Assembly (NCBI RefSeq): GCF_013122565.1
Contig: NZ_CP053258.1
DNA length: 64,000 bases
Source: Escherichia coli
GTDB lineage: Bacteria > Pseudomonadota > Gammaproteobacteria > Enterobacterales > Enterobacteriaceae
Reading direction: 5' to 3' (one strand)
Shown here: positions 377 through 62,108 of the stretch, piece by piece
Position numbering within the stretch: position 1 is the first letter of the stretch
How the letters are laid out: every line of letters begins with the position of its first letter
The notes under the pieces: model-generated
Database searches by the model: none
Told to the model about the DNA's origin: nothing
Seen by the model: the letters and a program-made list of their open reading frames with translations, nothing else
Position numbers and translations under genes: made by a program

Positions 377-615
377 TGTAAAGCATCCACAATAGAAGAA
401 GGATGCCGCAGGTTTCATCAATATTACGCGATGATGAGAACCAGATGCGACGTTGGCCGGCAGGTCTTCGGGCTTGGAGGGGTATCTAAGATACTAAGAG
501 ATGATGACTTCCCACCGAATGGCAGTGTCCGCATAACGCAATCATCGCACCTTTCCTTACCGCTGCGCGTCAGCTCCAGATTCGCACTGGATTCCCTATT
601 AACTCACAGGACCGG
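377..615 (-). promoter_or_regulatory. btuB 5' leader carrying the cobalamin (B12) riboswitch
   Basis: A roughly 240-nt leader lies between the btuB ATG and the divergent trmA gene; the reverse-strand sequence agrees with the K-12 btuB leader as I recall it. Boundaries are approximate. Confidence 0.7.
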
Positions 616-744
616 CAAGTGGATGCTACAGGTTGTAACAAGTTACTGTCCAGACATAGCTCACAAATAGGAATTCATCAAGATCTGGACATCTGATGAG
701 CAATCCCTACAATCGCCGCGTACTTTAATTTTTCAGGATACATC

Positions 745-5517: not shown

Positions 5518-5612
5518 TATCCATCCTCCATCGCCACGATAGTTCATGGCGATAGGTAGAATAGCAATGAACGATTATCCCTATCAAGCATTCTGACTGA
5601 TAATTGCTCACA
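5518..5612. promoter_or_regulatory. Divergent oxyR/oxyS promoter region, expected to carry the OxyR binding site
   Basis: Intergenic region between the oxyR start and the oxyS 5' end; the site itself was not mapped base by base. Confidence 0.5.
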
Positions 5613-5729
5613 GAAACGGAGCGGCACCTCTTTTAACCCTTGAAGTCACTGCCCGTTTCGAGAGTTTCTCAACTCGAATAACTAAAGCCAACGTGAACTT
5701 TTGCGGATCTCCAGGATCCGCTTTTTTTT
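5613..5729 (+). ncRNA. oxyS: OxyS small regulatory RNA with intrinsic terminator
   Basis: Sequence gaaacggagcggcacctcttttaacccttgaagtcactgcccgtttcgagagtttctcaactcgaataactaaagccaacgtgaacttttgcggatctccaggatccgc followed by a T-run, agreeing with K-12 oxyS as I recall it; divergent from oxyR. Confidence 0.9.
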
Positions 5730-5770
5730 TTATTCTACAGGCCCACAACAAGAGAGCCTGATAGTAACGG

Positions 5771-7054
5771 TTACTCAATGCGATCTTTGACAATAAAGAA
5801 GTAACACAACGCCCCGGTGAACGTCACACAGGCCGCGATAACCAACGCCAGATTAAACGAGTGTGTGGTATCCACTACCCAACCGGTTACGATCGGAGCA
5901 AAGGAAGCAAAAACAAAACTGCCAAAGTTTTGAATCCCGGCGATGGAAGCCACTTTTGTTTCTGACACCATCACCTGCACCAGTCCCCATGCAGACGTTC
6001 CCGCGAAATGCACGCAGAATAGCGCCATTGAGATAAACGCTACCGCCTGAGCTGGCGAGGAAGATTGCACGACCAGCAACGTGCCTAATGCCGACATCAT
6101 CAAACCGCAGACAATAGCCGTTTTACGCGTCTTCGCCAGGTCGTAGCCTTTTTTCGCCAGTCGATCGACAACAATACCGTTTACCCACATCCCGACTGCC
6201 GCCGCGAGGAAAGGAATCGCCGCCACCCAACCGGTTTTCGCCAGACTGAAACCTTGCTCGGCCTGCAAATAACCGGGTAACCACGCGATGTAGAGCCAAC
6301 CGGTATAATTGACGCCAGAGAAACCTAAAATCATCCCCCAGGTTGTCCGATGCTTAAACAGCGCCAGCCACTCGCTAAATTGCAGCTGTGGACGCGGTTT
6401 AACCGGCGCGGAGAGATACGTCCGTTCTTCGTCAGTCAGGACAAACTGCGCCCGGTTGCGATACCACGCGTACCAACAGATCCCAACCAGAATCCCCGCC
6501 ACGCCGATGATGACGAACATCGTCCGCCAGCCCCATGCCAGCTGCATCAATACAAGAGCAGGAGGCGCGATAGCCTGACCGATAACGGTAGATGAGTTAA
6601 AAATCCCCAGCGCCGTGCCGCGTTCTTTTTGTGCATACCAGTCGGTGATCGACTTTACTCCCGCAGGCATAAATGGCGCTTCGCCAATACCCAGACCGAT
6701 ACGCATTAAAATAAAGTGGCTAAAAGAATTAACCATTCCTGTTAATGCCTGCATTAATGACCAGAATATTAAGCCTGCGCCTAAAACTATTCGTGGGCCA
6801 AAGCGGTCTAGCAAAATACCGGAAGGAAGTTGTGAAAAACCATAAGACAGAGAAAATGCAGAAAGCAAAAAACCAAACTCTGTCGCTGATAATCCTAACT
6901 CGCCACGAATCGCTTCGCCTGCCACGCTCAATGACGAACGGTCGAGAAAATTAACGATCCCCGCCATAAATAATAAAACCAGGGTCACTGTCTGAATACG
7001 ACGAATCCGTTGCGGTTTATTACCCGCAACACTGGTTGACACATCAACGTCCAT
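5771..7054 (-). CDS. MFS transporter, anion:cation symporter (ACS) family, sugar-acid type (DgoT/ExuT-like); accessory
   Basis: 427-aa hydrophobic ORF with multiple predicted TM segments and an N-terminal signature (LLFMAGIVNFLDRSSLSVAGEAIRGELGLSATEFGFLLSAFSLSYGFSQLPSGILLDRFGPR) typical of ACS-family sugar-acid transporters. Not part of the K-12 oxyR-argH interval as I recall it. Confidence 0.8.
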   Translation of the reverse strand: MDVDVSTSVAGNKPQRIRRIQTVTLVLLFMAGIVNFLDRSSLSVAGEAIRGELGLSATEFGFLLSAFSLSYGFSQLPSGILLDRFGPRIVLGAGLIFWSLMQALTGMVNSFSHFILMRIGLGIGEAPFMPAGVKSITDWYAQKERGTALGIFNSSTVIGQAIAPPALVLMQLAWGWRTMFVIIGVAGILVGICWYAWYRNRAQFVLTDEERTYLSAPVKPRPQLQFSEWLALFKHRTTWGMILGFSGVNYTGWLYIAWLPGYLQAEQGFSLAKTGWVAAIPFLAAAVGMWVNGIVVDRLAKKGYDLAKTRKTAIVCGLMMSALGTLLVVQSSSPAQAVAFISMALFCVHFAGTSAWGLVQVMVSETKVASIAGIQNFGSFVFASFAPIVTGWVVDTTHSFNLALVIAACVTFTGALCYFFIVKDRIE

Positions 7055-7120
7055 TTTTAGCTCCTTGAGCGGAATTAATCGATTTGATGACTATTCAGAA
7101 AATAATTAAGCGAACCGTTA

Positions 7121-8335
7121 TTACCAGTTCCACAATGTGCCATCTTCCAGTCGTGCGACGGGGAGATACGCCGGGTCATACGGATATTTCGCCGCCAGTT
7201 TCTCATCGAAAGAAATACCCAGCCCCGGTTCATCGCCTGGGTGCATATAACCTTCATCGAAGCGCCAGCTGTGCGGGAAGACTTCAAGCATTTGTTCGGA
7301 ATAGCCCATGTACTCCTGAACGCCAAAGTTTGGCACCCAGAGGTCAAAATGCAGCGCCGCCGCATGACAAACAGGCGATAAATCTGAAGGGCCATGCGAA
7401 CCGGTACGTACCTGATAAAGCGATGCAAAATCGGCAATCCGTCGCATCCCGGTAATGCCGCCTGCATGGGTAATCGTCGTGCGAATATAGTCAATCAGCT
7501 GCTCTTCGATTAACTGCTTGCAGTCCCAGATACTGTTAAACACTTCACCGACCGCAATCGGCGTCACGGTGTGCTGGCGAATCAGACGGAAACATTCCTG
7601 GTTCTCGGCAGGCGTAGGATCTTCCATCCAGAACAGGCGGTAATCCTCAATGCTCTTCCCAAAGCGCGCCGCTTCGATGGGGGTCAGGCGATGGTGCATG
7701 TCATGCAACAGATGTTCGTTAAAACCGAACTTATTACGCACCGCTTCAAATAACTTCGGCGTAAAATCGAGATACTTTTCTGAAGACCACAACTGCTCTT
7801 CTGGCCACAGGCCTTTGGTTGCCGGTTCATACGCCAGTCCTTTGCCCTTCGCCAGGCCATAAGTGGTTTGCATACCCGGTACACCACACTGCACACGAAT
7901 CGCCTTAAAGCCCATGTGCTGGTGCTTTGCATAGTCTTCAAGGACTTCATCAATCGTACGCCCGGTGGTGTGGCAATAAACCATCACGCCTTCACGAGAA
8001 GCACCACCAAGCAGTTGATACAATGGCATATTTGCCGCTTTAGCTTTGATATCCCACAACGCCATATCAATGGCAGAAATGGCTGACATCGTGACGGGGC
8101 CACGTCGCCAGTAAGCACCTTTATAAAAGAATTGCCAGATATCTTCGATACGGCTGGCATCGCGGCCAATTAGTTGTGGACAAAGATGATCTTTCAGATA
8201 AGAAGCGACCGACAATTCGCGACCATTTAACGTGGCATCTCCTAATCCACAAAGTCCGCTTTCAGTGGTTATTTTAAGCGTAACGAAATTACGCCCTGGG
8301 CAAGTAACAAAAACATCCGCAGCAATAATTTTCAT
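7121..8335 (-). CDS. Enolase-superfamily sugar-acid dehydratase, D-mannonate dehydratase (ManD)/RspA-like; accessory
   Basis: The ORF-track entry is 424 aa; the likely start is [43 protein letters not shown], preceded by an AGGAG Shine-Dalgarno, and this N-terminus closely resembles E. coli RspA and ManD-family enzymes. Confidence 0.8.
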
Positions 8336-8739
8336 TATTGCAATCTCCTGTGTTGTAAATAGACGTTTCAAACTTAATTTTACGCCTACTACCATACAAG
8401 AGAGAAAAAGCGATTATTCAACCGTGATCACATTAAAAACAAAAATTTCCATCGAGGAGAAAAAATACCCTCAAAAACCACCTGAATAATTAACCATTAT
8501 CGTTAAAACAACACGTTAAATAATCACATAACAAACTCCATTAATCATTAAAAATGGGCACAGCAATAGAAAATAATTATATTCAATTAATTAAAACATG
8601 CATTGGTTGATGTATTGAAAATATGATTTTTATGGGGGGGAGTGAAGGTAAAGAAGACACAATAATAAAAAGGAATATGACAAATAATGGTTCTGGTTGG
8701 ACGTTAAATTTAAGGTCACCAGAATGATGACAAATTTCT

Positions 8740-8797
8740 GCCTGATGCGGCGTAAACGCCTTATCCGCCTACGAAGTGTCGCACTTTGTAGGCGTGG
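8740..8797. repeat. REP (repetitive extragenic palindromic) element downstream of argH
   Basis: gcctgatgcggcgtaaacgccttatccgcctac followed by an inverted partner; typical E. coli REP consensus. Confidence 0.7.
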
Positions 8798-8833
8798 TAA
8801 ACTCCCCATTTTCAGGGGAGCAATATAAACAAA

Positions 8834-10207
8834 TTACTCTAACCGAGCCTGCGCAAAAGCAATTGCCTGCGCCACCTGCTGCGGTGAGACGCCGCCTTTT
8901 GCCGCACGCTTGTCGAGGCACGATTGTAGCGACAGAATCGGATAGACATCTTCGCCAATCACCTGACTGAATTTCTGCAACTCACTGAGTGGCAGATCTT
9001 CCAGCGGTTTGCCCTGACGAATGGCTTCCACCACCGCTTCACCCACAATATGGTGCGCCTCGCGGAAAGGTACGCCTTTCGCCACCAGGTAATCCGCCAG
9101 TTCGGTGGCGTTGGCGTAACCCTGCTGAGCCGCTTCCTGGCAACGTGGACGTTTCACCTGAATGCCGTCCAGCACCAGCGCCGCCATATGCAGGCAGTCC
9201 AGCCAAGTATCGAGCGCGTCGAACAGACCTTCTTTGTCTTCCTGCATATCTTTGTTGTAAGCCAGCGGCAAACCTTTCAGCGTCATCATCATGCCAGTTA
9301 ACGCGCCCTGCACCCGACCACATTTACCGCGAATCAGCTCCAGCGCATCCGGGTTTTTCTTCTGCGGCATTAATGATGAACCGGAAGTCACGCGGTCAGA
9401 AAGCTCCACAAACCCCGCTTCGCCGGTGTTAAAGAAAATCAGATCTTCAGCAAAACGCGACAGATGCACCATGCCGATAGCGGCAGCAGAAAGCAGTTCC
9501 AGCACGTGGTCACGGTCAGAAACGCTGTCGAGACTGTTACGGGTCGCTGAAGCAAAACCCAGCCAGCCAGCTAACTGTTCACGGTCGATTTCATAAGCCG
9601 TTCCCGCCAGCGCGCCACAGCCTAACGGACTGACATCCAGACGCTTAAGCGCATCCTGCAAACGGCTTTCATCACGCGCCAGCATCTCAACATAGGCCAG
9701 GCACCAGTGCGCGAACGTCACCGGCTGGGCGCGTTGCAGGTGAGTGTAACCTGGCATGACCGCGTCCTGATTGTTTTGTGCGGTTTCCACCAGCGCCGAT
9801 TGCAGCTGCCGGTTAGCCGTCAGCAACTCGCCAACGGTATCTTTGCACCACAGTTTCAGGTCTGTCGCTACCTGATCATTACGACTACGCCCGGTATGCA
9901 GCTTTTTGCCTAACTGGCCCACTTTGTCGATCAGTTTGCCTTCCACCCAGCTATGAATATCTTCGGCGTCGCTTTCGAGGATTTGTTGTGGCCTGGCGCG
10001 AACATCTTCCAGCAGCACGTTCAGCGCCTCTTCCAGTTGCGCCTGCTCTTCTGCGGTTAACACGCCGACCGTTACCAGGGCTTTGGACCAGGCCACAGAG
10101 CCAACAATATCCTGCTCCGCCAGACGGTAATCAAAGCGCAGTGAGTCGTTGAATTGTTTGAACCGTTGATCTGCTGCCTGGGTAAAACGCCCGCCCCAAA
10201 GTGCCAT
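8834..10207 (-). CDS. argH: Argininosuccinate lyase
   Basis: 457-aa [44 protein letters not shown]..., fumarate-lyase family. Confidence 0.95.
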
Positions 10208-10267
10208 AACTCTGTTTCCTTATTTTGAAATTCAATGCCGGAAAGCTGCGCCTCCGGCTAACAAAAC

Positions 10268-11044
10268 TTAAGCTAAAATCCGCGTACCCATCGGCATACC
10301 GTTAAACAGTGCCGGAAGCTGTTCCGCATGACGCCAGGAGGCGATATCTACCGGACGGCCCAACGTGCGCGCAGCATCCAGCGCCGCGTTCACTTTCACT
10401 ATCATGCCGTCAGTAATAATACCCTGCTCAATCAGTTGTTCTGCTTTCGCGGCGGTCATTTCGGCAATACGTTGCCCTTTGCCGTCGAGAATGCCACTGA
10501 CGTCGGAGAGCAAAATCAGATCCGCGCCCAGCGTTGCCGCCAGCGCCGTTGCCGCCTGATCGGCATTGACATTCATCAGTTGCCCTTCGTCTGTTACGCC
10601 AATGGAGCTGACCACCGGCAGATAACCGTTCTCCAGCAAGGTGTTGATAAGCTTAGGCGAACCTGGCTGCGCCAGTCCAACATGGCCTAACTCTTCATCA
10701 AGCTGGGTCACTTTGACGCTGTCGCCGTCACCGAGAAACAAACCTACGGCCGCAATCTGATGTTTCTTCGCCCATGCCAGCAGGGTTTTATTTGCCGTTC
10801 CCGCCAGTGCTCCGGTGATAATGTCTATCTGATCCGCAGGCGTCACCCGCAGGCCGTTTTTCTTTTTCACTGGCAGATTCAGCCCTTTCATCAGCTCATC
10901 CACCACGCAACCGCCGCCGTGGACAATCACCAGCGGACGCTGATGTGACTCACGATAATTCACCAGTGCGCTAAACAGACGTTCCAGCGCCTCTTCACTA
11001 TCCAGCAGTACGCCACCCAGTTTGATAATTAATGGATTCATCAT
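10268..11044 (-). CDS. argB: Acetylglutamate kinase
   Basis: Canonical 258-aa protein starting [24 protein letters not shown]; the ORF-track entry has an 11-aa extension. Confidence 0.95.
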
Positions 11045-11051
11045 TGCACCC

Positions 11052-12056
11052 TTAAATAAGAGACTGCGTTTCCGCATAGCCGAAACGAATATTGGCGCAC
11101 TGTACCGCTTGTGCCGCCGCGCCTTTCAGTAAGTTGTCTTCGGTCGCCACAATAATCAGATGCTCACCCTGAACGGCAAACCCGATATCGCAAAATGGCA
11201 GCCCAACGACATTTTTCAGCGCCGGAACGCCTTTGTCATACAGACGCACCAGCGGTTTATGGGCATACGCCTGCTGTAATGCCTGCGCCACTTGCGCCTG
11301 GCTCACGCCCGGTTTCAGGCGGCAGGTAATGGTTTCGAGAATGCCGCGCGGGAAATTGCCCAGATGCGGGGTGAAGATAACGTCAGCACCGAGGTGTGTG
11401 GCGATCTCTGGTTGATGGCGATGGGTAAAGACGCCATACGGTTGCAGGCTAACTTCACAAAAACTATTTGAAATCGCTGCCTTACGTCCTGCACCGCTCA
11501 CGCCGCTGGTGGCGTTGATCACTGGCCACTGATTGAGGTCAAGAAGATCGGCATCAATCAACGGTTTCAGCGCCAACTGTGCTGCCGTCGGATAACAGCC
11601 TGGTACCGCAATCAAATTCGCTTCTTTTAATTTATTACCGCACCACTCCGCCAGACCGTAGGCTGCCTGTTCCAGCAGTTCCGGGTATTGATGGGTAAAG
11701 CCGTAATATTTTTCATAGAAGGTGGCGTCGTTAACACGAAACGCGCCGGAAAGGTCGAACACCACGCAGCCCGCTTCAAGAAACTGCGGCGCTAAATCGT
11801 GGCTAACTTCATGGGCAGTGGCGAGAAACACCACGTCCACCCCTGGGCTAAACTCGCTGATATCCGACATCGGCTGCAACGGCAGATCAACGATGCCTTT
11901 TAGCTGCGGATGCAAATCGGAGATTAACTTTCCCGCATCATTGCTTTGCGCTGAAACAGTCAAAGCGGTTATGTTCATATGCGGATGGCGATTTACATAG
12001 GTCACTAGCTCTGCGCCAGCGTAGCCGCTGGCACCCACAATCAGCGTATTCAACAT
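11052..12056 (-). CDS. argC: N-acetyl-gamma-glutamyl-phosphate reductase
   Basis: 334-aa [46 protein letters not shown]... Confidence 0.95.
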
Positions 12057-12149
12057 CGGGGCTATTCACCTTCTTATGTCTGGTTGCCAGGTTAAACGTA
12101 AAACATTCACCTTACGGCTGGTGGGTTTTATTACGCTCAACGTTAGTGT

Positions 12150-12195
12150 ATTTTTATTCATAAATAATGCATGAATATTGATACTATCATGACCA
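12150..12195. promoter_or_regulatory. ARG boxes (ArgR operator) in the divergent argE / argCBH promoter region
   Basis: Sequence cataaataatgcatgaatattgatactatcatg between argC and argE resembles tandem ARG boxes (TnTGAATwwwwATTCAnw). Confidence 0.65.
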
Positions 12196-12209
12196 GAGGT
12201 GTGTCAACA

Positions 12210-13361
12210 ATGAAAAACAAATTACCGCCATTTATCGAGATTTACCGTGCTCTGATTGCCACACCTTCAATAAGCGCCACGGAAGAGGCACTCGATCAAA
12301 GCAATGCAGATTTAATCACTCTGCTGGCGGACTGGTTTAAAGATTTAGGCTTCAATGTGGAAGTGCAGCCTGTGCCAGGAACTCGCAACAAATTTAATAT
12401 GCTGGCCAGTTGCGGACAGGGGGCTGGCGGCTTGTTGCTGGCGGGGCATACCGATACGGTGCCATTTGATGACGGTCGCTGGACGCGCGATCCGTTTACA
12501 CTGACGGAGCATGACGGCAAGCTTTACGGCTTAGGCACCGCCGACATGAAAGGCTTTTTTGCGTTTATCCTCGATGCGCTACGCGATGTCGACGTTACGA
12601 AGCTTGCAAAACCGCTCTACATTCTGGCGACTGCCGATGAAGAAACCAGTATGGCCGGAGCGCGTTATTTTGCCGAAACTACCGCCCTGCGCCCGGATTG
12701 CGCCATCATTGGCGAACCGACGTCACTACAACCGGTACGCGCACATAAAGGTCATATCTCTAACGCCATCCGTATTCAGGGCCAGTCGGGGCACTCCAGC
12801 GATCCAGCACGCGGAGTTAACGCTATCGAACTAATGCACGACGCCATCGGGCATATTTTGCAATTGCGCGATAACCTGAAAGAACGTTATCACTACGAAG
12901 CGTTTACCGTGCCATACCCTACGCTCAACCTCGGGCATATTCACGGTGGCGACGCTTCTAACCGTATTTGCGCTTGCTGTGAGTTGCATATGGATATTCG
13001 TCCGCTGCCTGGCATGACACTCAATGAACTTAATGGTTTGCTCAACGATGCATTGGCTCCGGTGAGCGAACGCTGGCCGGGTCGTCTGACGGTCGACGAG
13101 CTGCATCCGCCGATCCCTGGCTATGAATGCCCACCGAATCATCAACTGGTTGAAGTGGTTGAGAAATTGCTCGGAGCAAAAACCGAAGTGGTGAATTACT
13201 GTACCGAAGCGCCGTTTATTCAAACGTTATGCCCGACGCTGGTTCTGGGGCCTGGCTCAATTAATCAGGCTCATCAGCCTGATGAATATCTGGAAACACG
13301 GTTTATCAAGCCCACCCGCGAACTGATAACCCAGGTAATTCACCATTTTTGCTGGCATTAA
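12210..13361 (+). CDS. argE: Acetylornithine deacetylase
   Basis: Canonical 383-aa protein starting [35 protein letters not shown]; the ORF-track entry has a 13-aa extension. Confidence 0.95.
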
Positions 13362-13362
13362 A

Positions 13363-13475
13363 ACGTAGGCCGGATAAGGCGCTCGCGCCGCATCCGGCAC
13401 TGTTGCCAAACGCCAGCGCTGCAATAATGTCGGATGCGATGCTTGCGCATCTTATCCGACCTACGCCTTTGGTGT
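13363..13475. repeat. REP/BIME element cluster between argE and ppc
   Basis: aggccggataaggcgctcgcgccgcatccggcac ... gtcggatgcgatgcttgcgcatcttatccgacctacgcc; paired REP palindromes. Confidence 0.7.
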
Positions 13476-13712
13476 TAATTGAGGCGATTTTTTAACATTC
13501 CCATAAGTTACGCTTATTTAAAGCGTCGTGAATTTAATGGCGTAAATTCCTGCTATTTATTCGTTTGCTGAAGCGATTTCGCAGCATTTGACGTCACCGC
13601 TTTTACGTGGCTTTATAAAAGACAACGAAAAGCAAAGCCCGAGCATATTCGCGCCAATGCGACGTGAAGGATACAGGGCTATCAAACGATAAGATGGGGT
13701 GTCTGGGGTAAT

Positions 13713-16364
13713 ATGAACGAACAATATTCCGCATTGCGTAGTAATGTCAGTATGCTCGGCAAAGTGCTGGGAGAAACCATCAAGGATGCGTTGGGAGAAC
13801 ACATTCTTGAACGCGTAGAAACTATCCGTAAGTTGTCCAAATCTTCACGCGCTGGCAATGATGCTAACCGCCAGGAGTTGCTCACCACCTTACAAAATTT
13901 GTCGAACGACGAGCTGCTGCCCGTTGCGCGTGCGTTTAGTCAGTTCCTGAACCTGGCCAACACCGCCGAGCAATACCACAGCATTTCGCCGAAAGGCGAA
14001 GCTGCCAGCAACCCGGAAGTGATCGCCCGCACCCTGCGTAAACTGAAAAACCAGCCGGAACTGAGCGAAGACACCATCAAAAAAGCAGTGGAATCGCTGT
14101 CGCTGGAACTGGTCCTCACGGCTCACCCAACCGAAATTACCCGTCGTACACTGATCCACAAAATGGTGGAAGTGAACGCCTGCTTAAAACAGCTCGATAA
14201 CAAAGATATCGCTGACTACGAACACAACCAGCTGATGCGTCGCCTGCGCCAGTTGATCGCCCAGTCATGGCATACCGATGAAATCCGTAAGCTGCGTCCA
14301 AGCCCGGTAGATGAAGCCAAATGGGGCTTTGCCGTAGTAGAAAACAGCCTGTGGCAAGGCGTACCGAATTACCTGCGCGAACTGAACGAACAACTGGAAG
14401 AGAACCTCGGCTACAAACTGCCCGTCGAATTTGTTCCGGTGCGTTTTACCTCGTGGATGGGCGGTGACCGCGACGGCAACCCAAACGTCACTGCCGATAT
14501 CACCCGCCACGTCCTGCTACTCAGCCGCTGGAAAGCCACCGATCTGTTCCTGAAAGATATTCAGGTTCTGGTTTCTGAACTGTCGATGGTTGAAGCGACC
14601 CCTGAACTGCTGGCGCTGGTTGGCGAAGAAGGTGCCGCAGAACCGTATCGCTATCTGATGAAAAACCTGCGTTCTCGCCTGATGGCGACACAGGCATGGC
14701 TGGAAGCGCGCCTGAAAGGCGAAGAACTGCCAAAACCAGAAGGCCTGCTGACACAAAACGAAGAACTGTGGGAACCGCTCTACGCTTGCTACCAGTCACT
14801 TCAGGCGTGTGGCATGGGTATTATCGCCAATGGCGATCTGCTCGACACCCTGCGCCGCGTGAAATGTTTCGGCGTACCGCTGGTCCGTATTGATATCCGT
14901 CAGGAGAGCACACGTCATACCGAAGCGCTGGGCGAGCTGACCCGCTACCTCGGTATCGGCGACTACGAAAGCTGGTCAGAGGCCGACAAACAGGCGTTCC
15001 TGATCCGCGAACTGAACTCCAAACGTCCGCTTCTGCCGCGCAACTGGCAACCAAGCGCCGAAACGCGCGAAGTGCTCGATACCTGCCAGGTGATTGCCGA
15101 AGCGCCGCAAGGCTCCATTGCCGCCTACGTGATCTCGATGGCGAAAACGCCGTCCGACGTGCTGGCTGTCCACCTGCTGCTGAAAGAAGCGGGTATCGGG
15201 TTTGCAATGCCGGTTGCTCCGCTGTTTGAAACCCTCGATGACCTGAACAACGCCAACGATGTCATGACCCAGCTGCTCAATATCGACTGGTATCGCGGCC
15301 TGATTCAGGGCAAACAGATGGTGATGATTGGCTATTCCGACTCAGCAAAAGATGCGGGCGTGATGGCAGCGTCCTGGGCGCAATATCAGGCACAGGATGC
15401 ATTAATCAAAACCTGCGAAAAAGCGGGTATTGAGCTGACGTTGTTCCACGGTCGCGGCGGTTCCATTGGTCGTGGCGGCGCACCTGCTCATGCGGCGCTG
15501 CTGTCACAACCGCCAGGAAGCCTGAAAGGTGGCCTGCGCGTGACTGAACAGGGCGAGATGATCCGCTTTAAATATGGTCTGCCAGAAATCACCGTCAGCA
15601 GCCTGTCGCTGTACACCGGGGCGATTCTGGAAGCCAACCTGCTGCCACCACCTGAGCCGAAAGAGAGCTGGCGTCGCATTATGGATGAACTGTCAGTCAT
15701 CTCCTGCGATCTCTACCGTGGCTACGTACGTGAAAACAAAGATTTTGTGCCTTACTTCCGCTCCGCTACGCCGGAACAAGAACTGGGCAAACTGCCGTTG
15801 GGTTCACGTCCGGCGAAACGTCGCCCAACCGGCGGCGTCGAGTCACTACGCGCCATTCCGTGGATCTTCGCCTGGACGCAAAACCGCCTGATGCTCCCCG
15901 CCTGGCTGGGTGCAGGAACAGCGCTGCAAAAAGTGGTCGAAGACGGCAAACAGAGCGAGCTGGAGGCTATGTGCCGCGATTGGCCATTCTTCTCGACGCG
16001 TCTCGGCATGCTGGAGATGGTCTTCGCCAAAGCAGATCTGTGGCTAGCGGAATACTATGACCAACGCCTGGTAGACAAAGCACTGTGGCCGTTAGGTAAA
16101 GAGTTACGCAATCTGCAAGAAGAAGACATCAAAGTGGTGCTGGCGATTGCCAACGATTCCCATCTGATGGCCGATCTGCCGTGGATTGCAGAGTCTATTC
16201 AGCTACGGAATATTTACACCGACCCGCTGAACGTATTGCAGGCCGAGTTGCTGCACCGCTCCCGCCAGGCAGAAAAAGAAGGCCAGGAACCGGATCCTCG
16301 CGTCGAACAAGCGTTAATGGTCACTATTGCCGGGATTGCGGCAGGTATGCGTAATACCGGCTAA
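13713..16364 (+). CDS. ppc: Phosphoenolpyruvate carboxylase
   Basis: 883-aa [44 protein letters not shown]... ending ...MRNTG. Confidence 0.97.
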
Positions 16365-16381
16365 TCTTCCTCTTCTGCAAA

Positions 16382-16410
16382 CCCTCGTGCTTTTGCGCGA
16401 GGGTTTTCTG
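16382..16410 (+). terminator. Probable intrinsic terminator of ppc
   Basis: Hairpin ccctcg-tgcttttgcg-cgaggg followed by ttttctg just after the ppc stop. Confidence 0.6.
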
Positions 16411-16546
16411 AAATACTTCTGTTCTAACACCCTCGTTTTCAATATATTTCTGTCTGCATTTTATTCAAATTCTGAATATACCTTCAGATATCCTTAAGGA
16501 ATTGTCGTTACATTCGGCGATATTTTTTTCAAGACAGGTTCTTACT

Positions 16547-18280
16547 ATGCATTCCACAGAAGTCCAGGCTAAACCCCTTTTTAGCTGGAAAGCCCTGGGT
16601 TGGGCACTGCTCTACTTTTGGTTTTTCTCTACTCTGCTACAGGCCATTATTTACATCAGTGGTTATAGTGGCACTAACGGCATTCGCGACTCGCTGTTAT
16701 TCAGTTCGCTGTGGTTGATCCCGGTATTTCTCTTTCCGAAGCGGATTAAAATCATTGCCGCAGTGATCGGCGTGGTGCTATGGGCGGCCTCTCTGGCGGC
16801 GCTGTGCTACTACGTCATCTACGGTCAGGAGTTCTCGCAGAGCGTTCTGTTTGTGATGTTTGAAACCAACACCAACGAAGCCAGCGAGTATTTAAGCCAG
16901 TATTTCAGCCTGAAAATTGTGCTTATCGCGCTGGCCTATACGGCGGTGGCTGTTCTGCTGTGGACACGCCTGCGCCCGGTCTATATTCCAAAGCCGTGGC
17001 GTTATGTTGTCTCTTTTGCCCTGCTTTATGGCTTGATTCTGCATCCGATCGCCATGAATACGTTTATCAAAAACAAGCCGTTTGAGAAAACGTTGGATAA
17101 CCTGGCCTCGCGTATGGAGCCTGCCGCACCGTGGCAATTCCTGACCGGCTATTATCAGTATCGTCAGCAACTAAACTCGCTAACAAAGCTACTGAATGAA
17201 AATAATGCCTTGCCGCCGCTGGCTAATTTCAAAGATGAATCGGGTAACGAACCGCGCACCTTAGTGCTGGTGATTGGCGAGTCAACCCAGCGTGGACGCA
17301 TGAGTCTGTACGGTTATCCGCGTGAAACCACGCCGGAGCTGGATGCGCTGCATAAAACCGATCCGAATCTAACCGTGTTTAATAACGTAGTTACGTCTCG
17401 TCCGTACACCATTGAAATCCTGCAACAGGCGCTGACCTTTGCCAATGAAAAGAACCCGGATCTGTATCTGACGCAGCCGTCGCTGATGAACATGATGAAA
17501 CAGGCGGGTTATAAAACCTTCTGGATCACCAACCAGCAGACGATGACCGCCCGCAATACCATGCTGACGGTATTTTCGCGCCAGACCGACAAGCAGTACT
17601 ACATGAACCAGCAACGTACGCAGAGTGCTCGTGAATACGACACTAACGTGCTGAAGCCGTTCCAGGAAGTGCTGAAGGACCCTGCGCCGAAGAAACTGAT
17701 CATTGTTCATCTGCTGGGTACGCATATCAAATACAAATACCGCTACCCGGAAAATCAGGGCAAGTTTGATGGCAATACCGATCATGTTCCGCCGGGATTA
17801 AACGCGGAAGAGCTGGAGTCATATAACGATTATGACAACGCTAACCTGTATAACGATCATGTGGTTGCCAGCCTGATTAAAGACTTTAAAGCAGCAGACC
17901 CGAACGGTTTCCTGGTTTACTTCTCTGACCACGGTGAAGAGGTTTACGACACGCCGCCTCATAAAACCCAGGGGCGTAATGAGGACAACCCGACGCGTCA
18001 TATGTACACCATTCCGTTCCTGCTGTGGACGTCGGAAAAATGGCAAGCGACTCATCCGCGTGATTTCTCGCAGGATGTTGATCGTAAATACAGCCTGGCG
18101 GAACTGATCCACACCTGGTCAGATTTGGCGGGCTTATCTTACGACGGTTACGATCCAACCCGTTCAGTGGTGAATCCGCAGTTCAAAGAAACTACCCGCT
18201 GGATTGGTAACCCGTATAAGAAAAACGCACTGATCGATTACGACACGCTGCCGTATGGCGATCAGGTGGGTAATCAGTAA
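16547..18280 (+). CDS. eptC: Phosphoethanolamine transferase EptC
   Basis: Canonical 577-aa protein starting MHSTEVQAKPLFSWKALGWALLYFW; N-terminal TM segments followed by a sulfatase-like domain. Confidence 0.93.
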   Translation: MHSTEVQAKPLFSWKALGWALLYFWFFSTLLQAIIYISGYSGTNGIRDSLLFSSLWLIPVFLFPKRIKIIAAVIGVVLWAASLAALCYYVIYGQEFSQSVLFVMFETNTNEASEYLSQYFSLKIVLIALAYTAVAVLLWTRLRPVYIPKPWRYVVSFALLYGLILHPIAMNTFIKNKPFEKTLDNLASRMEPAAPWQFLTGYYQYRQQLNSLTKLLNENNALPPLANFKDESGNEPRTLVLVIGESTQRGRMSLYGYPRETTPELDALHKTDPNLTVFNNVVTSRPYTIEILQQALTFANEKNPDLYLTQPSLMNMMKQAGYKTFWITNQQTMTARNTMLTVFSRQTDKQYYMNQQRTQSAREYDTNVLKPFQEVLKDPAPKKLIIVHLLGTHIKYKYRYPENQGKFDGNTDHVPPGLNAEELESYNDYDNANLYNDHVVASLIKDFKAADPNGFLVYFSDHGEEVYDTPPHKTQGRNEDNPTRHMYTIPFLLWTSEKWQATHPRDFSQDVDRKYSLAELIHTWSDLAGLSYDGYDPTRSVVNPQFKETTRWIGNPYKKNALIDYDTLPYGDQVGNQ

Positions 18281-18428
18281 ATGACCTATGTATCGCGTCT
18301 GGCGCTATTTGCCGGATGCGATACTGGCACAATGTTTACATCTCACTTCCATCAGGCCACACTTTTCAGGTGGCCTTTTTTCATAATGCCAGTTACTGTT
18401 TTCCCGTCTACATACCTAAGGGAATAAC

Positions 18429-19280
18429 ATGTATCACGACGTCAGCTATCTGCTCTCCCGCCTGATCAACGGCCCGCTGTCCCTGCGCCAGATTTACTTT
18501 GCAAGCAGTAACGGCCCGGTGCCCGATCTTGCGTATCAGGTCGATTTTCCACGACTGGAAATTGTGCTGGAAGGTGAGTTTGTTGATACCGGCGCTGGAG
18601 CAACGTTAGTTCCCGGCGATGTGCTGTACGTTCCCGCTGGTGGCTGGAATTTTCCACAATGGAAAACACCCGCGACCACCTTTAGCGTGCTGTTTGGCAA
18701 ACAGCAACTCGGCTTCAGCGTCGTGCAATGGGATGGCAAACAATATCAAAATCTGGCGAAGCAACACGTCGCCCGACGCGGCCCACGCATAGGTTCTTTT
18801 CTGCTACAAACGCTCAATGAAATGCAAATGCAGTCGCAGGAGCAGCAAACGGCAAGGCTTATCGTCGCCAGCCTGCTTAGCCACTGCCGCGATTTGCTTG
18901 GCAGCCAAATCCAGACCGCCTCACGCAGCCAGGCACTGTTCGAAGCTATTCGTGATTATATCGACGAACGCTACGCCTCCGCGCTTACCCGCGAATCTGT
19001 CGCACAGGCATTCTATATTTCACCAAACTATCTCTCGCACCTGTTTCAAAAAACGGGGGCCATTGGTTTTAACGAATACCTGAATCACACGCGACTGGAG
19101 CACGCCAAGACGTTATTGAAAGGCTATGACCTGAAGGTAAAAGAAGTGGCGCACGCCTGCGGCTTTGTCGACAGCAACTACTTCTGCCGTCTGTTTCGTA
19201 AAAACACCGAACGCTCGCCGTCGGAATATCGCCGGCAGTACCACAGCCAACTGACAGAAAAACCGACTACTCCAGAATAA
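18429..19280 (+). CDS. yijO: AraC-family transcriptional regulator YijO
   Basis: 283-aa ORF with a C-terminal AraC HTH (YISPNYLSHLFQKTGAIGFNEYLNHTRLEHAKTLL). Confidence 0.9.
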   Translation: MYHDVSYLLSRLINGPLSLRQIYFASSNGPVPDLAYQVDFPRLEIVLEGEFVDTGAGATLVPGDVLYVPAGGWNFPQWKTPATTFSVLFGKQQLGFSVVQWDGKQYQNLAKQHVARRGPRIGSFLLQTLNEMQMQSQEQQTARLIVASLLSHCRDLLGSQIQTASRSQALFEAIRDYIDERYASALTRESVAQAFYISPNYLSHLFQKTGAIGFNEYLNHTRLEHAKTLLKGYDLKVKEVAHACGFVDSNYFCRLFRKNTERSPSEYRRQYHSQLTEKPTTPE

Positions 19281-19608
19281 GATGGGTTTGCTGCGGCGCA
19301 GAAAGCACTTTGCGCACCGCGCTCATTACCCGCTGCGGCTCACGCAGGAATGCGTAGATGCTGCATTGCACATAGCGGCAATGTTCAAATCGCTCGGCAC
19401 CGGCAAGCTCGATATCCGTAATTAACAGCGCAACATCCGCCCGGCGGATATCCTCGTCCGCTAAACGATTCTCCGTTCCCAGCGCGCCCTGAGTTTCAAT
19501 GCTGATGACCCACTTCTCTAACTGGCACAACTTTTCCAGCCGTTCCGCCGCCATATAAGTATGCGCCACGCCGCTTACGCAGGCGGTTACTGCCACCAGG
19601 TATGCCAT
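19267..19608 (-). CDS. frwD: Fructose-like PTS EIIB component FrwD
   Basis: Canonical 113-aa protein MAYLVAVTACVSGVAHTYMAAERLEKLCQ...; paralogous to frwB at 22802..23122. Confidence 0.9.
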   Translation of the reverse strand: MAYLVAVTACVSGVAHTYMAAERLEKLCQLEKWVISIETQGALGTENRLADEDIRRADVALLITDIELAGAERFEHCRYVQCSIYAFLREPQRVMSAVRKVLSAPQQTHLILE

Positions 19609-19609
19609 T

Positions 19610-20488
19610 TTAACCTCCCACGGTAACCTGAAATCCGGCCCGTTCTGCCATTTCGCGCATCGTTGCCACATCAGCTGACGACGGCGCAGGCACCTCTTTC
19701 ATCGACCATGTTTTCCCCAGCAGGCGGTATTTCGGTTCGCCGTACTGATGAAACGGTAACAGATGGATCTGCCTGATATTCAGCGGGATCAGCACGTCCA
19801 GCGCCTGCTGCATATTCTCCCGGCTGAGCGTGAAACCAGGGATCAGCGGTAAACGCGGGATCACGTTGACACCCTCACTCACCAGCAAACGCAGATTCTC
19901 CACCACGCGTGGCAGGTTCATCTTCACCACATCCCGCGCCTGAGTCGCATCCATGATTTTTAAATCGAACAACACTTCATCGCACAATTTCGCCAGTGGT
20001 AACAGCTTGCTTGCTGGCGCGTCTCCGGCAGTTTCAATGGCGCATGACACCCCCCACAGCCGCAGTCGCTGTAAAAAACGGGTAGCAAACTCCGCCTGCA
20101 TTAACACTTCGCCGCCAGAAAGCGTGACGCCGCCGCCGGACGTGCGAAAGAAAATGTCATCTTTCATCACTTCCCGTTCCAGCGCGTCAAGGCTGATATC
20201 GCGACCAATCCGTTCAAACGCCCCGGAGGGGCATTCATCCGCATCACGCAAACATTTCGCACAGTGCAGACATTTCGCCTCTCTGCGTACCGTCTGGATT
20301 TTGCCGGAGATCGACTCCGGATTAGCACACCACGGGCAAAGATGCGGACAGCCTTTAAAAAAGACCACCGTACGAATGCCCTCACCGTCATTCAGTGAAT
20401 AACGCTGAATGTTGAAAATGCGCGCCACATCATTGCGGCGCGTTTCCACAACGTTACAGCTGATGCGCTGTCCGGCGGATGATGTCAT
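19610..20488 (-). CDS. pflC: Glycyl-radical enzyme activating protein (pyruvate formate-lyase 2 activase) PflC
   Basis: Radical-SAM CxxxCxxC motif (FFKGCPHLCPWCANPE); canonical 292-aa protein starting MTSSAGQRISCNVVETRR. Confidence 0.9.
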   Translation of the reverse strand: MTSSAGQRISCNVVETRRNDVARIFNIQRYSLNDGEGIRTVVFFKGCPHLCPWCANPESISGKIQTVRREAKCLHCAKCLRDADECPSGAFERIGRDISLDALEREVMKDDIFFRTSGGGVTLSGGEVLMQAEFATRFLQRLRLWGVSCAIETAGDAPASKLLPLAKLCDEVLFDLKIMDATQARDVVKMNLPRVVENLRLLVSEGVNVIPRLPLIPGFTLSRENMQQALDVLIPLNIRQIHLLPFHQYGEPKYRLLGKTWSMKEVPAPSSADVATMREMAERAGFQVTVGG

Positions 20489-22751
20489 CCTGGATCTCCT
20501 TCGACAGTTCGACAAAGAAGGCGCTGTATCCGGCAACGCGCACCACCAGCCCGGCATAATCTTGTGGGCGCTGTTGCGCTTCCCGCAACGTGTCGGCGTT
20601 CACCACGTTAAACTGAATATGTTGTAACTTAAGCTGGGTAAACGCCCGTAAGAAGTCGGCCAGTTTGCGTAATCCCGCTTCACCTTCCAGGGTCGCCGGA
20701 GTGAATTTCACGTTCAGCAACGTACCGTTAGACAGCAGTGTGTTATCGAGCTTACTGACTGACTTCAGTACCGCCGTTGGCCCTTGTGCGTCCTGGCCCA
20801 GCATGGGTGACAAGCCGCCGTCTGCCAGTTGTTCCCCGGCAAAACGACCGTCTGGCGTCGCACCAACCACCGATCCCAACGGGACGTGAGCAGAAACGGT
20901 ATACGATCCCGGCGTGAAGTAGCCGCCGCGCGGGTTCTGGTATTTTTCCACTTCTTTGCAGTAGTGGCGTAACAGTTCGGCGCTGATGTTATCCACCTCG
21001 TCGATATCGTTACCGTATTTCTCAAAGCGGTTAATTAAGCGAGCGCGGACTTTTTCGCCTTCTGGCGTTGCGAAGTTGGCTTTTAATACCGACAGCAATT
21101 CGTCAAAACTTAAACGCTGTTGATCAAAAACCATCCCTTTCAACGCATGGAGAGAATCGCTCAGGTTGGCGATACCGATCCCCTGTACGCCGGAGAAGTT
21201 ATAACGCGCGCCGCCATCGGTAATATCGCGGCCTTTTTCCAGACAATCGCTGATAAACGATGAGAGCAGCGGTACAGGTGCCCAGTCGCGATGGCCGATA
21301 TCACAAATATTGCTGCCCTCAACCATCAGGGTGATGTAGTGGCTGATCTTGGCGCGGATCTGCTCCAGTAAACCTTCATAAGTCAGCGCAGCATTGCCTT
21401 CATTTTCATGCAGGCAGATTTCCATCACTTTCAGCAGATTAAACATCGCGATGTCATGCAAGCCGTAGGTTCTGCCGGGAATAGATAATTCCACACAGCC
21501 CACTACGGAATAGTCGCGCGCATCTTCCAGCGAAACGCCACGGTTGAGGAACGCTGGCACCACCACTTCATCGTTAAAGATTTGCGGAATACCGGTGCCG
21601 AGGCGAATGGTTTCGGCGGTTTTCATCAGGAACGGCGTGTCGATCAAGGCGTTAGTGCGCACGCCGAGGTTCGGTTGCGGTAATTGCACGCTTTGATAAG
21701 CATCGAGGCAAAGGAATGAAAGCACGTTCACCGCGCTACGTCCGTTCTCGGTTAACCCGCCGAGCAGTGCGGTATAGCCGGTCGGGAAACCTGCGAAATA
21801 ACGCGCGCTGCTGGTGGAGCGCAACAGCACGATGTCGTTGCATTTCACCCATAAAGATTCGAGCAGTTCTTTCAGGAACGCCGGATCTTCGCCCTGGGTT
21901 AAAGATGCCTGATAGAACGGCAACATATACTGGTCGAAGCGCCCTAAAGACAGCGAACTGGCGTTGGATTCGTATTGCAGAATGATGTTCATGTACCAGA
22001 ATAACTGGCACGCCTGCCAGAACGTCTGCGGCTTATGTTGCGCGTTATGGCGGGAGATCTCCGCAATAGTCAGCAGCTCTTAGCGACGCTGGGCATCTGT
22101 GCAGTTTGCCGCCATCGTTTCCGCCAGTTCGGCGTAACGCAAAATGTGTTTCTGCGAGGCTTCCAGCAGTAACAGCGCTGCCTGATAAAAGTAATTCTCC
22201 GGCTGTTGCTGACAATGTTGCTGCATCTGCGCCACCAGCTCCCCCAGCCCGTGATTCAGCAGGCGCGGGTAATCAATAATAATGTGCCCCTGGCCTTTAT
22301 CCGTCTGGTTGATGCTGAAAATCTGCGTGCTGGTCGCGGCTTTTACTTCATCCGTCATCTGCCCGTTGATGAAATCTTTCATCGAACGTTTTTCCCAGTA
22401 CGGGAACAACTCTTCGCGGTAGATACGTTTATCTTCTTCGCTGATAGCAAAGCGGTCCTGCGGACGCGTCGGGAACTGGTCCAACTCTTTCAGCAGCCAG
22501 TAAGGATCCATTTCCGGCGACATAATCCCGGCGCGTGGTTTCACCGTGCGGTTACCGGCAATCAGTTCTTCATCACGAATCGAAATTTCAACATGTTCAA
22601 GGATATACGCTGTTGCTTTCGCCCGGCGCAATATCACCGGTTCGCCTTCGGTTTGCCGATGGCTGGCGGTATAAAGCAGCGCACGCTCCAGCGAGATTTC
22701 ACGGGTATTGGCAAACAGTGCAGTTTTGAGGCGAGAGATACGATTCGTCAT
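20454..22751 (-). pseudogene. pflD: pflD (glycyl-radical enzyme, formate acetyltransferase 2) interrupted by a single in-frame TAA stop
   Basis: ORFs 22080..22751 (223 aa, N-terminal) and 20454..21992 (512 aa, C-terminal) are in the same frame. Reading on past the TAA at 22080..22082 gives continuous protein-like sequence (ELLTIAEISRHNAQHKPQTFWQACQLFWYMNIILQ...). Total span of 766 codons matches the 765-aa full-length enzyme. Confidence 0.8.
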
Positions 22752-22801
22752 GAGGAACTCCTGTGGGAAAGCGAACCCGCCCTTGCGAGCGGGAGAAGAA
22801 C

Positions 22802-23122
22802 TTAAGCGGTTTGCGCCAGGTGAGCTTCAATTTTGCTCATAATGGCGTCAGCGCGTTTTACCGCGTCGCTGATGTTGACGCGCACAATGGTCTTGCCAGC
22901 AAAACGCTCTTCAAACTTGATGCCGATATCTTTGGTCAGAATCACCATATCGGCGCTCGCCACATCTTCCGCAGTCAGTTCGTTTTCCAGACCAATCGAG
23001 CCCTGGGTTTCTACTTTCACTTCCCAGCCTTTCGCTTTCGCGGCACTTTCCAGCGCCTCTGCCGCCATATAAGTATGGGCAACACCAGATGGACATGCGG
23101 TTACTGCAATAATTTTCGTCAT
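22802..23122 (-). CDS. frwB: Fructose-like PTS EIIB component FrwB
   Basis: 106-aa ORF MTKIIAVTACPSGVAHTYMAAEALESAAKAKGWEVKVETQG... Confidence 0.92.
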   Translation of the reverse strand: MTKIIAVTACPSGVAHTYMAAEALESAAKAKGWEVKVETQGSIGLENELTAEDVASADMVILTKDIGIKFEERFAGKTIVRVNISDAVKRADAIMSKIEAHLAQTA

Positions 23123-23136
23123 GGCTCGTTCCTCAA

Positions 23137-34210: not shown

Positions 34211-34542
34211 GGAAAAGCCGAAGGGCGTCAACCGAAAAATGACCACTGATGGTGAGGAAATATCAGGGAAGTTGAAATTTTTTCATCTGAAGAAAAAAAC
34301 AGGGATACCAATGTTCAGTATGAGGTGAATATTGGGAAAATGCTGACGTTATTAATTTTATATTTATTTAAATGATGATTCATTCTGATTTATTTACTTA
34401 AAAAATGAATTATATTTTCAAATAAAACAAAAAGATACTTTAAGCCTCTCCGGCCTCCTCGCTTTTAATTTTGAACCACTTCAAACAAATAATAAATTCC
34501 TAAGAATTAAGTTGCAGACAAATTATACATCCCTCACGATAA

Positions 34543-34580
34543 GTAGAACGTTCTAGTAGAACGTTCTACTTATATAAATA
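34543..34580 (+). promoter_or_regulatory. Tandem perfect 12-bp palindromes (TAGAACGTTCTA x2) overlapping a -10-like TATAAAT; putative LacI-type operator and promoter for the EIICB operon
   Basis: gtagaacgttctag-tagaacgttctac at about 34543..34569, 55 to 80 bp upstream of the EIICB start, followed by tatataaat. The palindrome has the central CG and AACGTT core typical of LacI/GalR-family operators. Confidence 0.55.
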
Positions 34581-34623
34581 ATCGTTCTTGCGCAGTCATC
34601 TGCGCTATTCGGGGGAAATCAGC

Positions 34624-36123: not shown

Positions 36124-36196
36124 TCATAAGATTACGCTTTGTTGGAGGTTCTGGTCCCTGACTGGAACCTTCGTACTTATTGTTCAGGGAGTGAAG

Positions 36197-37213: not shown

Positions 37214-37336
37214 TTATTTCTGCCAGTCTCCGTCTTTAGCCGGCGGTCATCGCCACAACTGCACTGATGGATATGGTATTCTTTCGAGTATCTTTGCGGG
37301 CACTAACGCCAGGAGTATCGCCATGAGAATGGCGCG

Positions 37337-41104: not shown

Positions 41105-41337
41105 GCGCTTCCCCCGAAAATTCATCATGCGATGATTTTCGCAGGGAAAACGTCGCCCGCACCCTGCCACTTTTTAGAATGAGCGCAGACCACCTATGTC
41201 GTTTTACTTAAAAGAAGAGGGAAGAAGGCTCCAGGCATCTCCATATGCGATTCTGGTTGGTAATACATCATATTCCAGCTGCTCTTATCTGCCTACGTTA
41301 TTGCATAGGCAGAATAAGGCAGCCTCAATACGTACTT

Positions 41338-57540: not shown

Positions 57541-57556
57541 GTATCTGCCATGCGTT

Positions 57557-57583: not shown

Positions 57584-57587
57584 ATAC

Positions 57588-59060: not shown

Positions 59061-62108
<3,048 letters not shown>

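Follow-up and report, generated by a model that had tools for sequence, protein, structure and literature searches.

The window analysed in this study, a stretch of 64,000 nucleotides from contig NZ_CP053258.1 of Escherichia coli (assembly GCF_013122565.1), carries two genes between argH and oxyS: manD, for a D-mannonate dehydratase, and a gene for a transporter of the ACS family. On balance, we favour the reading that this pair, in the following called the cassette, is an operon and a detached sugar-acid module of the rsp cluster, linked to mannonate, controlled in trans by RspR and CRP and resident in Escherichia for a long time. The locus itself is an ordinary strain-variable accessory catabolic module of a known kind, and the names manD and MFS transporter were already in place in RefSeq. 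Newly added are the kinship with the rsp cluster, a candidate regulator acting in trans, a hypothesis for the substrate and the age of the locus.

The boundaries of the segment were determined by BLAST of the window against K-12. Homology ends at position 5729 and restarts at 8834, the argH stop codon. In the annotation of MG1655, argH ends at 4158223 and oxyS starts at 4158278, with no gene between them. The direct neighbourhood of oxyS and argH in K-12, which the preliminary description had stated, could thus be shown, and its coordinates 5730-8833 were exact. The following features make up the locus:

5730..8833, no strand: presence/absence segment, 3,104 bp against 54 bp in K-12 (BLAST)
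5771..7054, minus strand: gene for the ACS-family (DgoT-like) MFS transporter, 427 aa (open reading frame)
7055..7120, minus strand: spacer between manD and the transporter gene, 66 nt, with AAGGAG 7 nt before the transporter ATG (sequence)
7121..8335, minus strand: manD, D-mannonate dehydratase of the ManD subgroup of the enolase superfamily, 404 aa, RspA paralogue (open reading frame, NCBIfam, RefSeq)
8834..10207, minus strand: argH, upstream of the cassette on the same strand (open reading frame, annotation of homologous loci)

Both cassette genes are convergent with an intact oxyS. About 40 nt separate the transporter stop codon and the last T that follows the oxyS hairpin, the distance given earlier. 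The longest open reading frame of the dehydratase extends from 7121 to 8395; most likely the true start is the ATG at 8335 (MKIIAAD..., with AGGAG 8 nt upstream), which yields 404 aa and matches the RefSeq annotation. Inspection of the sequence and a promoter scan detected no promoter box or promoter-like site in the 66-nt spacer. Since this spacer provides its own ribosome-binding site and lacks such a site, manD and the transporter gene are probably transcribed together as a bicistronic operon. Only two open reading frames of the cassette gave family matches, and the list of open reading frames for 5730-8833 contains no regulator, kinase or aldolase gene.

The dehydratase was assigned with the equivalog model NF043051 (ManoateDhtManD), which it matched over residues 1-404 with 732.2 bits (cut-off 550); NF011654 was matched with 806.6 bits (cut-off 430). 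With E. coli RspA it shares 91.8% identity; the nearest solved structures are 4IL2 (RspA of E. coli CFT073) and 4E4F (Pectobacterium ManD). The residues R147, Y159, D212, H214, E238, E264 and H314 are kept. Among these, the Mg2+ ligands D212/E238/E264, the pair Tyr159-Arg147 and His214 are invariant across 16 aligned ManD/RspA sequences. For the Novosphingobium ManD the ligands are reportedly D210, E236 and E262, with Y159/R147 as base dyad and H212 as acid. The high-efficiency ManDs of Novosphingobium (2QJJ) and Caulobacter, which belong to a glucuronate pathway, are members of the same subgroup and align over the full length (E about 1e-183); unlike them, the cassette enzyme groups with the RspA type (4IL2, 4E4F). 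In a neighbour-joining tree the cassette ManDs form a clade outside all RspA proteins of rsp loci, that of E. coli included. Hence, the cassette gene is not a recent copy of E. coli rspA, and its product is best described as a paralogue of RspA. Ten positions separate this clade from every enzyme of an rsp locus, and two of them, Q156 and L161, flank Tyr159. The reaction assigned to ManD is also that of UxuA from the hexuronate pathway (uxuAB, UxuR/ExuR), whose fold and family (TIGR00695) are unrelated to the enolase superfamily.

For the transporter, a protein identical to it matched Pfam PF07690 (MFS). WP_000382169.1 is identical to it as well, and so is the copy of strain A5 (100%). The best match with a solved structure was E. 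coli DgoT (6E9N/6E9O, E 8e-58, residues 13-424). The equivalents of DgoT D46, R47, R126 and E133 are conserved, and the motifs LDR, GEAP and MR align to 6E9N. In DgoT, D46 and E133 are said to be protonatable and R47 and R126 to bind the carboxylate, which would account for proton coupling and substrate binding. DgoT, a D-galactonate:H+ symporter, belongs to the ACS family like the cassette transporter, as do ExuT, GudP, GarP, LgoT and RhmT, but is only distantly similar to it. With the NF043051 and DgoT matches, the identities proposed previously for both genes (ManD/RspA-like dehydratase and ACS-family MFS transporter) were confirmed. No equivalog model of NCBIfam fits the transporter. A large protein search returned near-identical enterobacterial orthologues only, which were labelled 'MFS transporter' and carried no functional information. 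One automatic label 'L-galactonate transporter' among these orthologues was likewise uninformative and was discarded. Two loci with homologues of 42-43% identity (L023, L024) have no ManD, RspB or YdfI neighbours and were too remote to inform the substrate.

The kinship with the rsp cluster is apparent from other genera. Orthologues of the transporter with 82-89% identity adjoin the rsp-locus ManD in Lelliottia, Siccibacter, Pluralibacter, Raoultella, Citrobacter, Atlantibacter and Enterobacter. These clusters also hold RspB (Zn-dependent oxidoreductase, PRK10083), the MHS-family transporter YdfJ and the fructuronate reductase-like YdfI (NCBIfam, BLAST), together with a GntR regulator of 228 aa that is 82-85% identical to K-12 RspR (YdfH). 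UxaC and a GPH symporter are present in the clusters of some genera. The flanks are YnfC, SpeG and YnfA on one side and YdfG on the other. The K-12 locus has the order ydfG-rspR-ydfZ-ydfI-ydfJ-[Qin prophage]-rspB-rspA-ynfA and no ACS-type transporter. In the neighbour-joining tree the cassette transporter, unlike the cassette ManD, nests among the enterobacterial orthologues. Judged by these comparisons, the Escherichia cassette corresponds to the rspA-plus-transporter part of the rsp cluster, placed elsewhere in the chromosome.

The catalytic residues of K-12 RspA, known as 'starvation-sensing protein' and encoded by rspAB under RspR/YdfH and CRP, are identical to those of the cassette ManD. 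The two systems differ in their sites (rspAB between ynfA and Qin, the cassette between argH and oxyS) and in the partner gene, which is the RspB dehydrogenase for rspA and the transporter for manD. Furthermore, the cassette occurs in 34% of the strains, whereas rspR is a core gene that was found in 5,416 of 5,426 complete E. coli genomes.

The gene order of the rsp locus itself allowed a side observation. In K-12 (locus L026, 5454-8286) ydfJ and ydfI are encoded on the rspAB strand, and only the Qin prophage separates them from rspAB; in Lelliottia (locus L013, 6767-13381) rspA, the MFS gene, rspB, ydfJ and ydfI are uninterrupted. This comparison suggests that Qin split one ancestral operon.

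Regulation of rspAB has been described for K-12. At the rspA promoter, a 31-bp stretch centred on ATACTTGTAT is protected by RspR, which represses rspAB (Shimada et al., PMC8249747), its sole target in K-12 according to genomic SELEX (systematic evolution of ligands by exponential enrichment; PMC8249747). The published RspR box is the palindrome ATACnnGTAT (PMC8249747), and a 2026 preprint regards both the RspR and the CRP sites at rspAp as known (bioRxiv 10.1101/2025.05.13.653802). Because K-12 does not carry the cassette, the SELEX experiment could not detect it as a target. The following elements were identified upstream of manD:

8371..8376, minus strand: candidate -10 hexamer TAAGTT, 17 nt after TTGTAT, read by analogy with the mapped rspA promoter
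8389..8400, minus strand: CTTGTATGGTAG box, conserved operator/-35 element of the rsp cluster, exact match about 55 nt upstream of the manD ATG
8426..8432, minus strand: TGTGATC, CRP half-site 26 nt upstream of the TTGTATGGTAG box, spacing kept in nearly all of 28 sites compared
8499..8518, minus strand: conserved upstream block TAACGTGTTGTTTTAACGAT, nearly invariant from E. coli to Citrobacter sp. R56
8690..8800, minus strand: palindromic element of the REP/BIME type (repetitive extragenic palindrome/bacterial interspersed mosaic element) 3' of argH, strong fold, z = -5.1

The 11-mer TTGTATGGTAG has a single match in the 64-kb window, even with one mismatch allowed. It was found at 28 promoters of rsp-cluster genes in 18 fetched loci, K-12-type rspA and the cassette included; some clusters contain two or three copies, before the transporter, ManD and ydfI genes. 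No similar box with up to two mismatches was detected in the ydfG-ydfJ region of K-12. An alignment of the promoters revealed a common layout, TGTGATCAC...CATACTTGTATGGTAGTAG for rspA and TGTGATCAC...CTCTCTTGTATGGTAGTAG for the cassette, and the arrangement TGTGATC-N26-TTGTATGGTAG is shared between rspAp and the cassette promoter. The CTTGTATGGTAG box overlaps the region that corresponds to the RspR-protected DNA at K-12 rspA. It is invariant in four Escherichia alleles and Citrobacter, whereas the flanking bases vary. Between E. coli and Citrobacter, three blocks show little or no variation in otherwise divergent surroundings, namely TGTGATCA, TCTTGTATGGTAGTAGG and, further upstream, TAACGTGTTrTTTTAAyGAT. 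About 140 nt separate the upstream block TAACGTGTTGTTTTAACGAT from the predicted manD promoter; the block contains a direct TAACG...TAACG repeat. An unidentified repressor site is located near -100 at K-12 rspAp (bioRxiv 10.1101/2025.05.13.653802); its sequence has no obvious match to TAACGTGTTGTTTTAACGAT.

The absence of the left palindrome half at the cassette has a parallel, as 16 of the 28 TTGTATGGTAG sites are likewise without ATAC. Thus, the conserved element is CTTGTATGGTAGT rather than the palindrome, and this element is matched exactly at the cassette (8400..8389), at promoter distance from manD. The link to rsp was found only through the comparison of homologous promoters; a search with the full RspR box was negative. 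No convincing match to KdgR or UxuR/ExuR operators was seen in the cassette promoter when it was compared with the consensus operators by eye only. From the conservation of the motifs, control of the cassette in trans by RspR and cyclic AMP (cAMP)-CRP is likely. The former statement that the cassette has no cognate regulator therefore holds in cis, where no regulator gene is present, but probably not in trans, in view of the rspA-type promoter and the nearly universal rspR.

The long AT-rich region upstream of manD had also been proposed as a control region. About 200 bp of it look like control DNA, but another part is the REP element next to argH. No credible small open reading frames were recognized in this DNA, and the sole match to an RNA family of Rfam was the REP-derived naRNA4 (8690-8770, 30.8 bits, below the threshold).

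The substrate was approached through gene pairings. In Rouxiella badensis the gene after a transporter orthologue of 71% identity codes for UxuA (TIGR00695, 644 bits), and a UxuR/ExuR-like regulator is encoded divergently. The non-homologous replacement of ManD by UxuA ties the transporter to the dehydration of mannonate. Together with the minimal gene pair and the family assignment of ManD, this pairing makes D-mannonate the simplest cargo, and we consider it the most likely substrate. In the proposed mechanism, transcription would start about 40 nt upstream of manD from the rspA-type promoter. cAMP-CRP would probably activate through the TGTGATC site, and the core GntR-family repressor RspR (YdfH) would probably repress in trans through the CTTGTATGGTAG box. 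The ACS-family symporter would import an acid sugar with protons, most likely D-mannonate or an aldonate that core enzymes turn into D-mannonate. ManD would dehydrate D-mannonate to 2-keto-3-deoxy-D-gluconate, which the core enzymes KdgK and Eda would consume. The route from an imported aldonate via 2-keto-3-deoxygluconate to KdgK/Eda, as it had been suggested before, fits the protein family, the catalytic residues and the pairing with UxuA in Rouxiella.

Several results weigh against this reading. The ManDs of the RspA type are reportedly of low efficiency, with kcat/KM of about 10-100 M-1 s-1, and no physiological role is said to have been found for such enzymes. As E. coli already has UxuA, a plain role in mannonate catabolism may be redundant. 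The transporter reached only 275.8 bits with TIGR00893 (2A0114), its best NCBIfam match, below the cut-off of 395. It is a divergent ACS member, so that the substrate of DgoT is not transferable to it, and no characterised orthologue that would fix the substrate emerged from the large protein search. At the promoter, the left ATAC half of the published RspR palindrome is replaced by TCTC and the site reads TCTCTTGTAT, with the right half-site alone retained; ATACNNGTAT has no match in 8336-8833 even when one mismatch is allowed. RspR may accordingly bind the cassette promoter weakly or not at all. In the cassette CRP site the left half is perfect, but the right half TTGAA agrees poorly with TGTGA-N6-TCACA (two of five matches). 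The right CRP half of K-12 rspAp is equally weak, though that CRP site is treated as known (bioRxiv 10.1101/2025.05.13.653802). Finally, no paper on the manD-transporter pair was found in the literature searched (manD/rspA, oxyS/argH/mannonate, CFT073 locus tags c4918-c4921).

A possible, if rather doubtful, alternative is that the same operon serves another cargo, L-gulonate or a different aldonate or uronate, and provides an extra uptake and last-step arm for the core route of RspB, YdfI and RspA/UxuA. RspB is an L-gulonate 5-dehydrogenase and YdfI a fructuronate reductase. In most genera the transporter stands beside rspB, ydfI and the second transporter gene ydfJ, and the company of uxaC and the GPH symporter in some of them yields several candidate acid sugars. 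A promoter box common to the cassette and rspAB implies that the two are co-regulated. For CFT073, a strain which carries the cassette, a cryptic L-gulonate pathway via RspB has reportedly been described. On the other hand, Escherichia and Rouxiella keep the transporter with a mannonate dehydratase only, either ManD or UxuA. This is a minimal set for mannonate and not for gulonate.

The distribution was examined in the 5,426 complete E. coli genomes. The transporter gene was present with at least 80% coverage in 1,862 of them (34%), always on the chromosome, and the whole cassette in 1,860. Any match to the transporter gene was obtained for 1,869 genomes, of which 1,862 keep at least 80% of the gene. 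Carriers include the probiotic Nissle 1917, APEC O78, an ST648 strain and the uropathogen CFT073, named strains read off the match lists; in K-12 and O157:H7 the site is empty. The accessory nature of the locus, as opposed to a core position, was thereby borne out. The proteins of CFT073 agree with those of the window in 401 of 404 residues (ManD) and 425 of 427 residues (transporter). The E. coli alleles group at about 99.4%, 98.9% and 97.5% identity to the window, a divergence like that of core genes.

Outside this species, the transporter was scanned with one genome per GTDB species. The same argH-oxyR site is occupied in Escherichia sp. E1V33, E. whittamii and Escherichia sp. MOD1-EC7003, for which the following synonymous divergences (dS) from the window were calculated, with argH, oxyR and sthA as flanking genes:

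E1V33: manD 0.12, transporter gene 0.26, flanks 0.29-0.31
E. whittamii: manD 0.36, transporter gene 0.25, flanks 0.29-0.39
MOD1-EC7003: transporter gene 0.15, flanks 0.15-0.22

The ratio of nonsynonymous to synonymous divergence (dN/dS) was 0.01-0.03 for manD and 0-0.04 for the transporter gene, with dS up to 0.36. The coding G+C content of the cassette is 50-51% compared with 52% for the window, and that of the upstream DNA is 34%. Open reading frames, family matches and a repeat search revealed no integrase, insertion sequence, tRNA or flanking repeats in the cassette and its flanks. Occupation of the same site in three further Escherichia lineages, flank-like dS, low dN/dS and the missing marks of mobility thus show that the cassette has long resided in this spacer and is maintained by selection. 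The direction of change is indicated by the dS values and the three other lineages: the state of K-12 is more likely a loss than ancestral. The cassette was probably lost in roughly two thirds of the sampled E. coli, K-12 included.

Some decayed copies were observed. In the ST648 strain (locus L029, NZ_CP008697.1, 2532-3539) the transporter gene measures 1,008 bp instead of 1,284 bp owing to an in-frame internal deletion of 276 bp and encodes 335 aa, with an intact manD; a second genome, H101, has the same transporter coverage of 81%. Citrobacter sp. R56 has a decayed cassette at the same site (locus L020, 7207-8000). Its manD is a stub of about 40 N-terminal and about 20 C-terminal codons, and the promoter box is kept, so that the rsp-type promoter now stands before the transporter gene alone.

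These deletions, together with the two thirds of E. coli genomes that lack the pair, might point to a cryptic relic, that is, to silent or useless genes which persist by drift. Low-efficiency ManDs are not known to have an established physiological role, and their activity is redundant with that of UxuA. Such a relic is nevertheless improbable, given a dN/dS of 0.01-0.04 for both genes over the dS range observed, the invariant promoter motifs and the small number of matching genomes (seven of 1,869) in which less than 80% of the transporter gene is kept.

The preliminary description had regarded the pair as inserted, and a recently acquired horizontal island next to oxyS would agree with the patchy presence, with the low G+C content of the upstream DNA and with a ManD that is not a recent copy of E. 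coli rspA but forms a separate clade. This origin was not upheld and is considered very improbable. The three other Escherichia lineages carry the cassette at the same site with dS values near those of argH, oxyR and sthA (0.15-0.39), the E. coli alleles differ by 1-2.5% as core genes do, the coding G+C content is ordinary, and no integrase, insertion sequence, tRNA or flanking repeat accompanies the genes.

The position next to oxyS was examined with respect to transcription. The relevant features are:

5613..5722, plus strand: oxyS small RNA (Rfam RF00035, 139.5 bits against a gathering score of 75, model positions 1-110)
5703..5731, plus strand: intrinsic terminator of oxyS, hairpin 5703-5721 and T run (terminator scan, folds of both strands)
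5732..5770, minus strand: region 3' of the transporter stop, hairpin CAGGCTCTCTTGTTGTGGGCCTG followed by an A run (fold)
8802..8820, minus strand: hairpin CTCCCCTGAAAATGGGGAG followed by TTTACC just 3' of the argH stop, weak terminator candidate (fold)

Positions 5518-5729 are 100% identical to K-12; oxyS and its flanks are the same with or without the cassette. On the minus strand the oxyS hairpin is followed by CAAAAGTT and no U tract. Neither the terminator scan nor the fold detected a terminator-like site before oxyS in 5732..5770 on this strand; the sequence of this region is also found in CFT073. The 54-bp spacer of K-12 contains a canonical argH terminator back to back with that of oxyS, and the hairpin at 8802..8820 occupies the place of this argH terminator. 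As oxyR lies downstream on the same strand, read-through from the cassette, a possibility raised in the preliminary description, would be antisense to oxyS and sense to oxyR.

That the main effect of the cassette is such a regulatory one, coupling sugar acids to the OxyR/OxyS response, is the least probable of the explanations considered: the lack of a canonical intrinsic terminator on the minus strand between the transporter stop and oxyS, the canonical argH terminator in the corresponding K-12 spacer, the downstream oxyR and the 3' region conserved in CFT073 would be in keeping with it, but RNA polymerase could halt or pause at two hairpins, of which one is the oxyS terminator in reverse, Rho could terminate, and the complete identity of oxyS and its flanks with and without the cassette gives no sign of co-adaptation. 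A wider scenario, also unlikely, combines this read-through with the trans control favoured above. RspR would control a second, unlinked operon in a third of the strains (CFT073, Nissle 1917), and its induction by a host-derived sugar acid at low glucose, with no terminator to stop transcription, would generate RNA antisense to oxyS and sense to oxyR, resulting in a strain-specific link between carbon source and peroxide response.

For the detached rsp module as preferred here, some consequences can be named. CFT073, from which the crystallised RspA (4IL2) originates, possesses two enzymes of the ManD subgroup. Single rspA knock-outs in this strain may be masked by the cassette paralogue as well as by UxuA. 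In CFT073, ArgH is c4919 according to the literature, and the cassette genes are probably c4920 and c4921. The view of RspR as a regulator with a single target rests on K-12, a strain without the cassette; from the conserved box, many clinical and probiotic strains are predicted to have a second one. The pairing with either ManD or UxuA provides a concrete D-mannonate hypothesis for an uncharacterised ACS-family transporter. Furthermore, the locus shows cleanly how a presence/absence polymorphism of old age could be taken for a recent insertion. In practical terms the findings have modest value, and no long-standing question is opened.

Other variable segments were noticed nearby. Between fabR and sthA an accessory pair of an M20 aminoacylase and a citrate-proton symporter is present in O157:H7 (locus L002, 763-3288), there as a pseudogene, and in CFT073 (locus L030, 896-3421); it is absent from the window and from K-12. 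With this pair besides the cassette, the btuB-argH neighbourhood holds several independent presence/absence segments. At 34278-44116, between metF and metL, about 9.8 kb stand against about 200 bp in K-12. They encode a glucose-type IIBC component of the phosphotransferase system, a MalI-like LacI regulator, a MocR/PdxR-like regulator, an alanine-racemase-like protein, a serine hydroxymethyltransferase-like protein (371 aa), a UshA/5'-nucleotidase-like protein and a protein of 376 aa without NCBIfam match. Between rraA and zapB (57539-59064) about 1.5 kb replace about 90 bp of K-12; the open reading frames 57588-58274 (228 aa) and 58307-59023 (238 aa) have no NCBIfam match. The best match of the 15-kb stretch 9000-24000 among the complete E. 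coli genomes was 98.4%, while individual genes of the window are 99-100% identical, each to different strains. Thus, the window is a mosaic or belongs to a poorly sampled lineage. A cobalamin riboswitch upstream of btuB (442-631, minus strand) was detected as expected for this neighbourhood.

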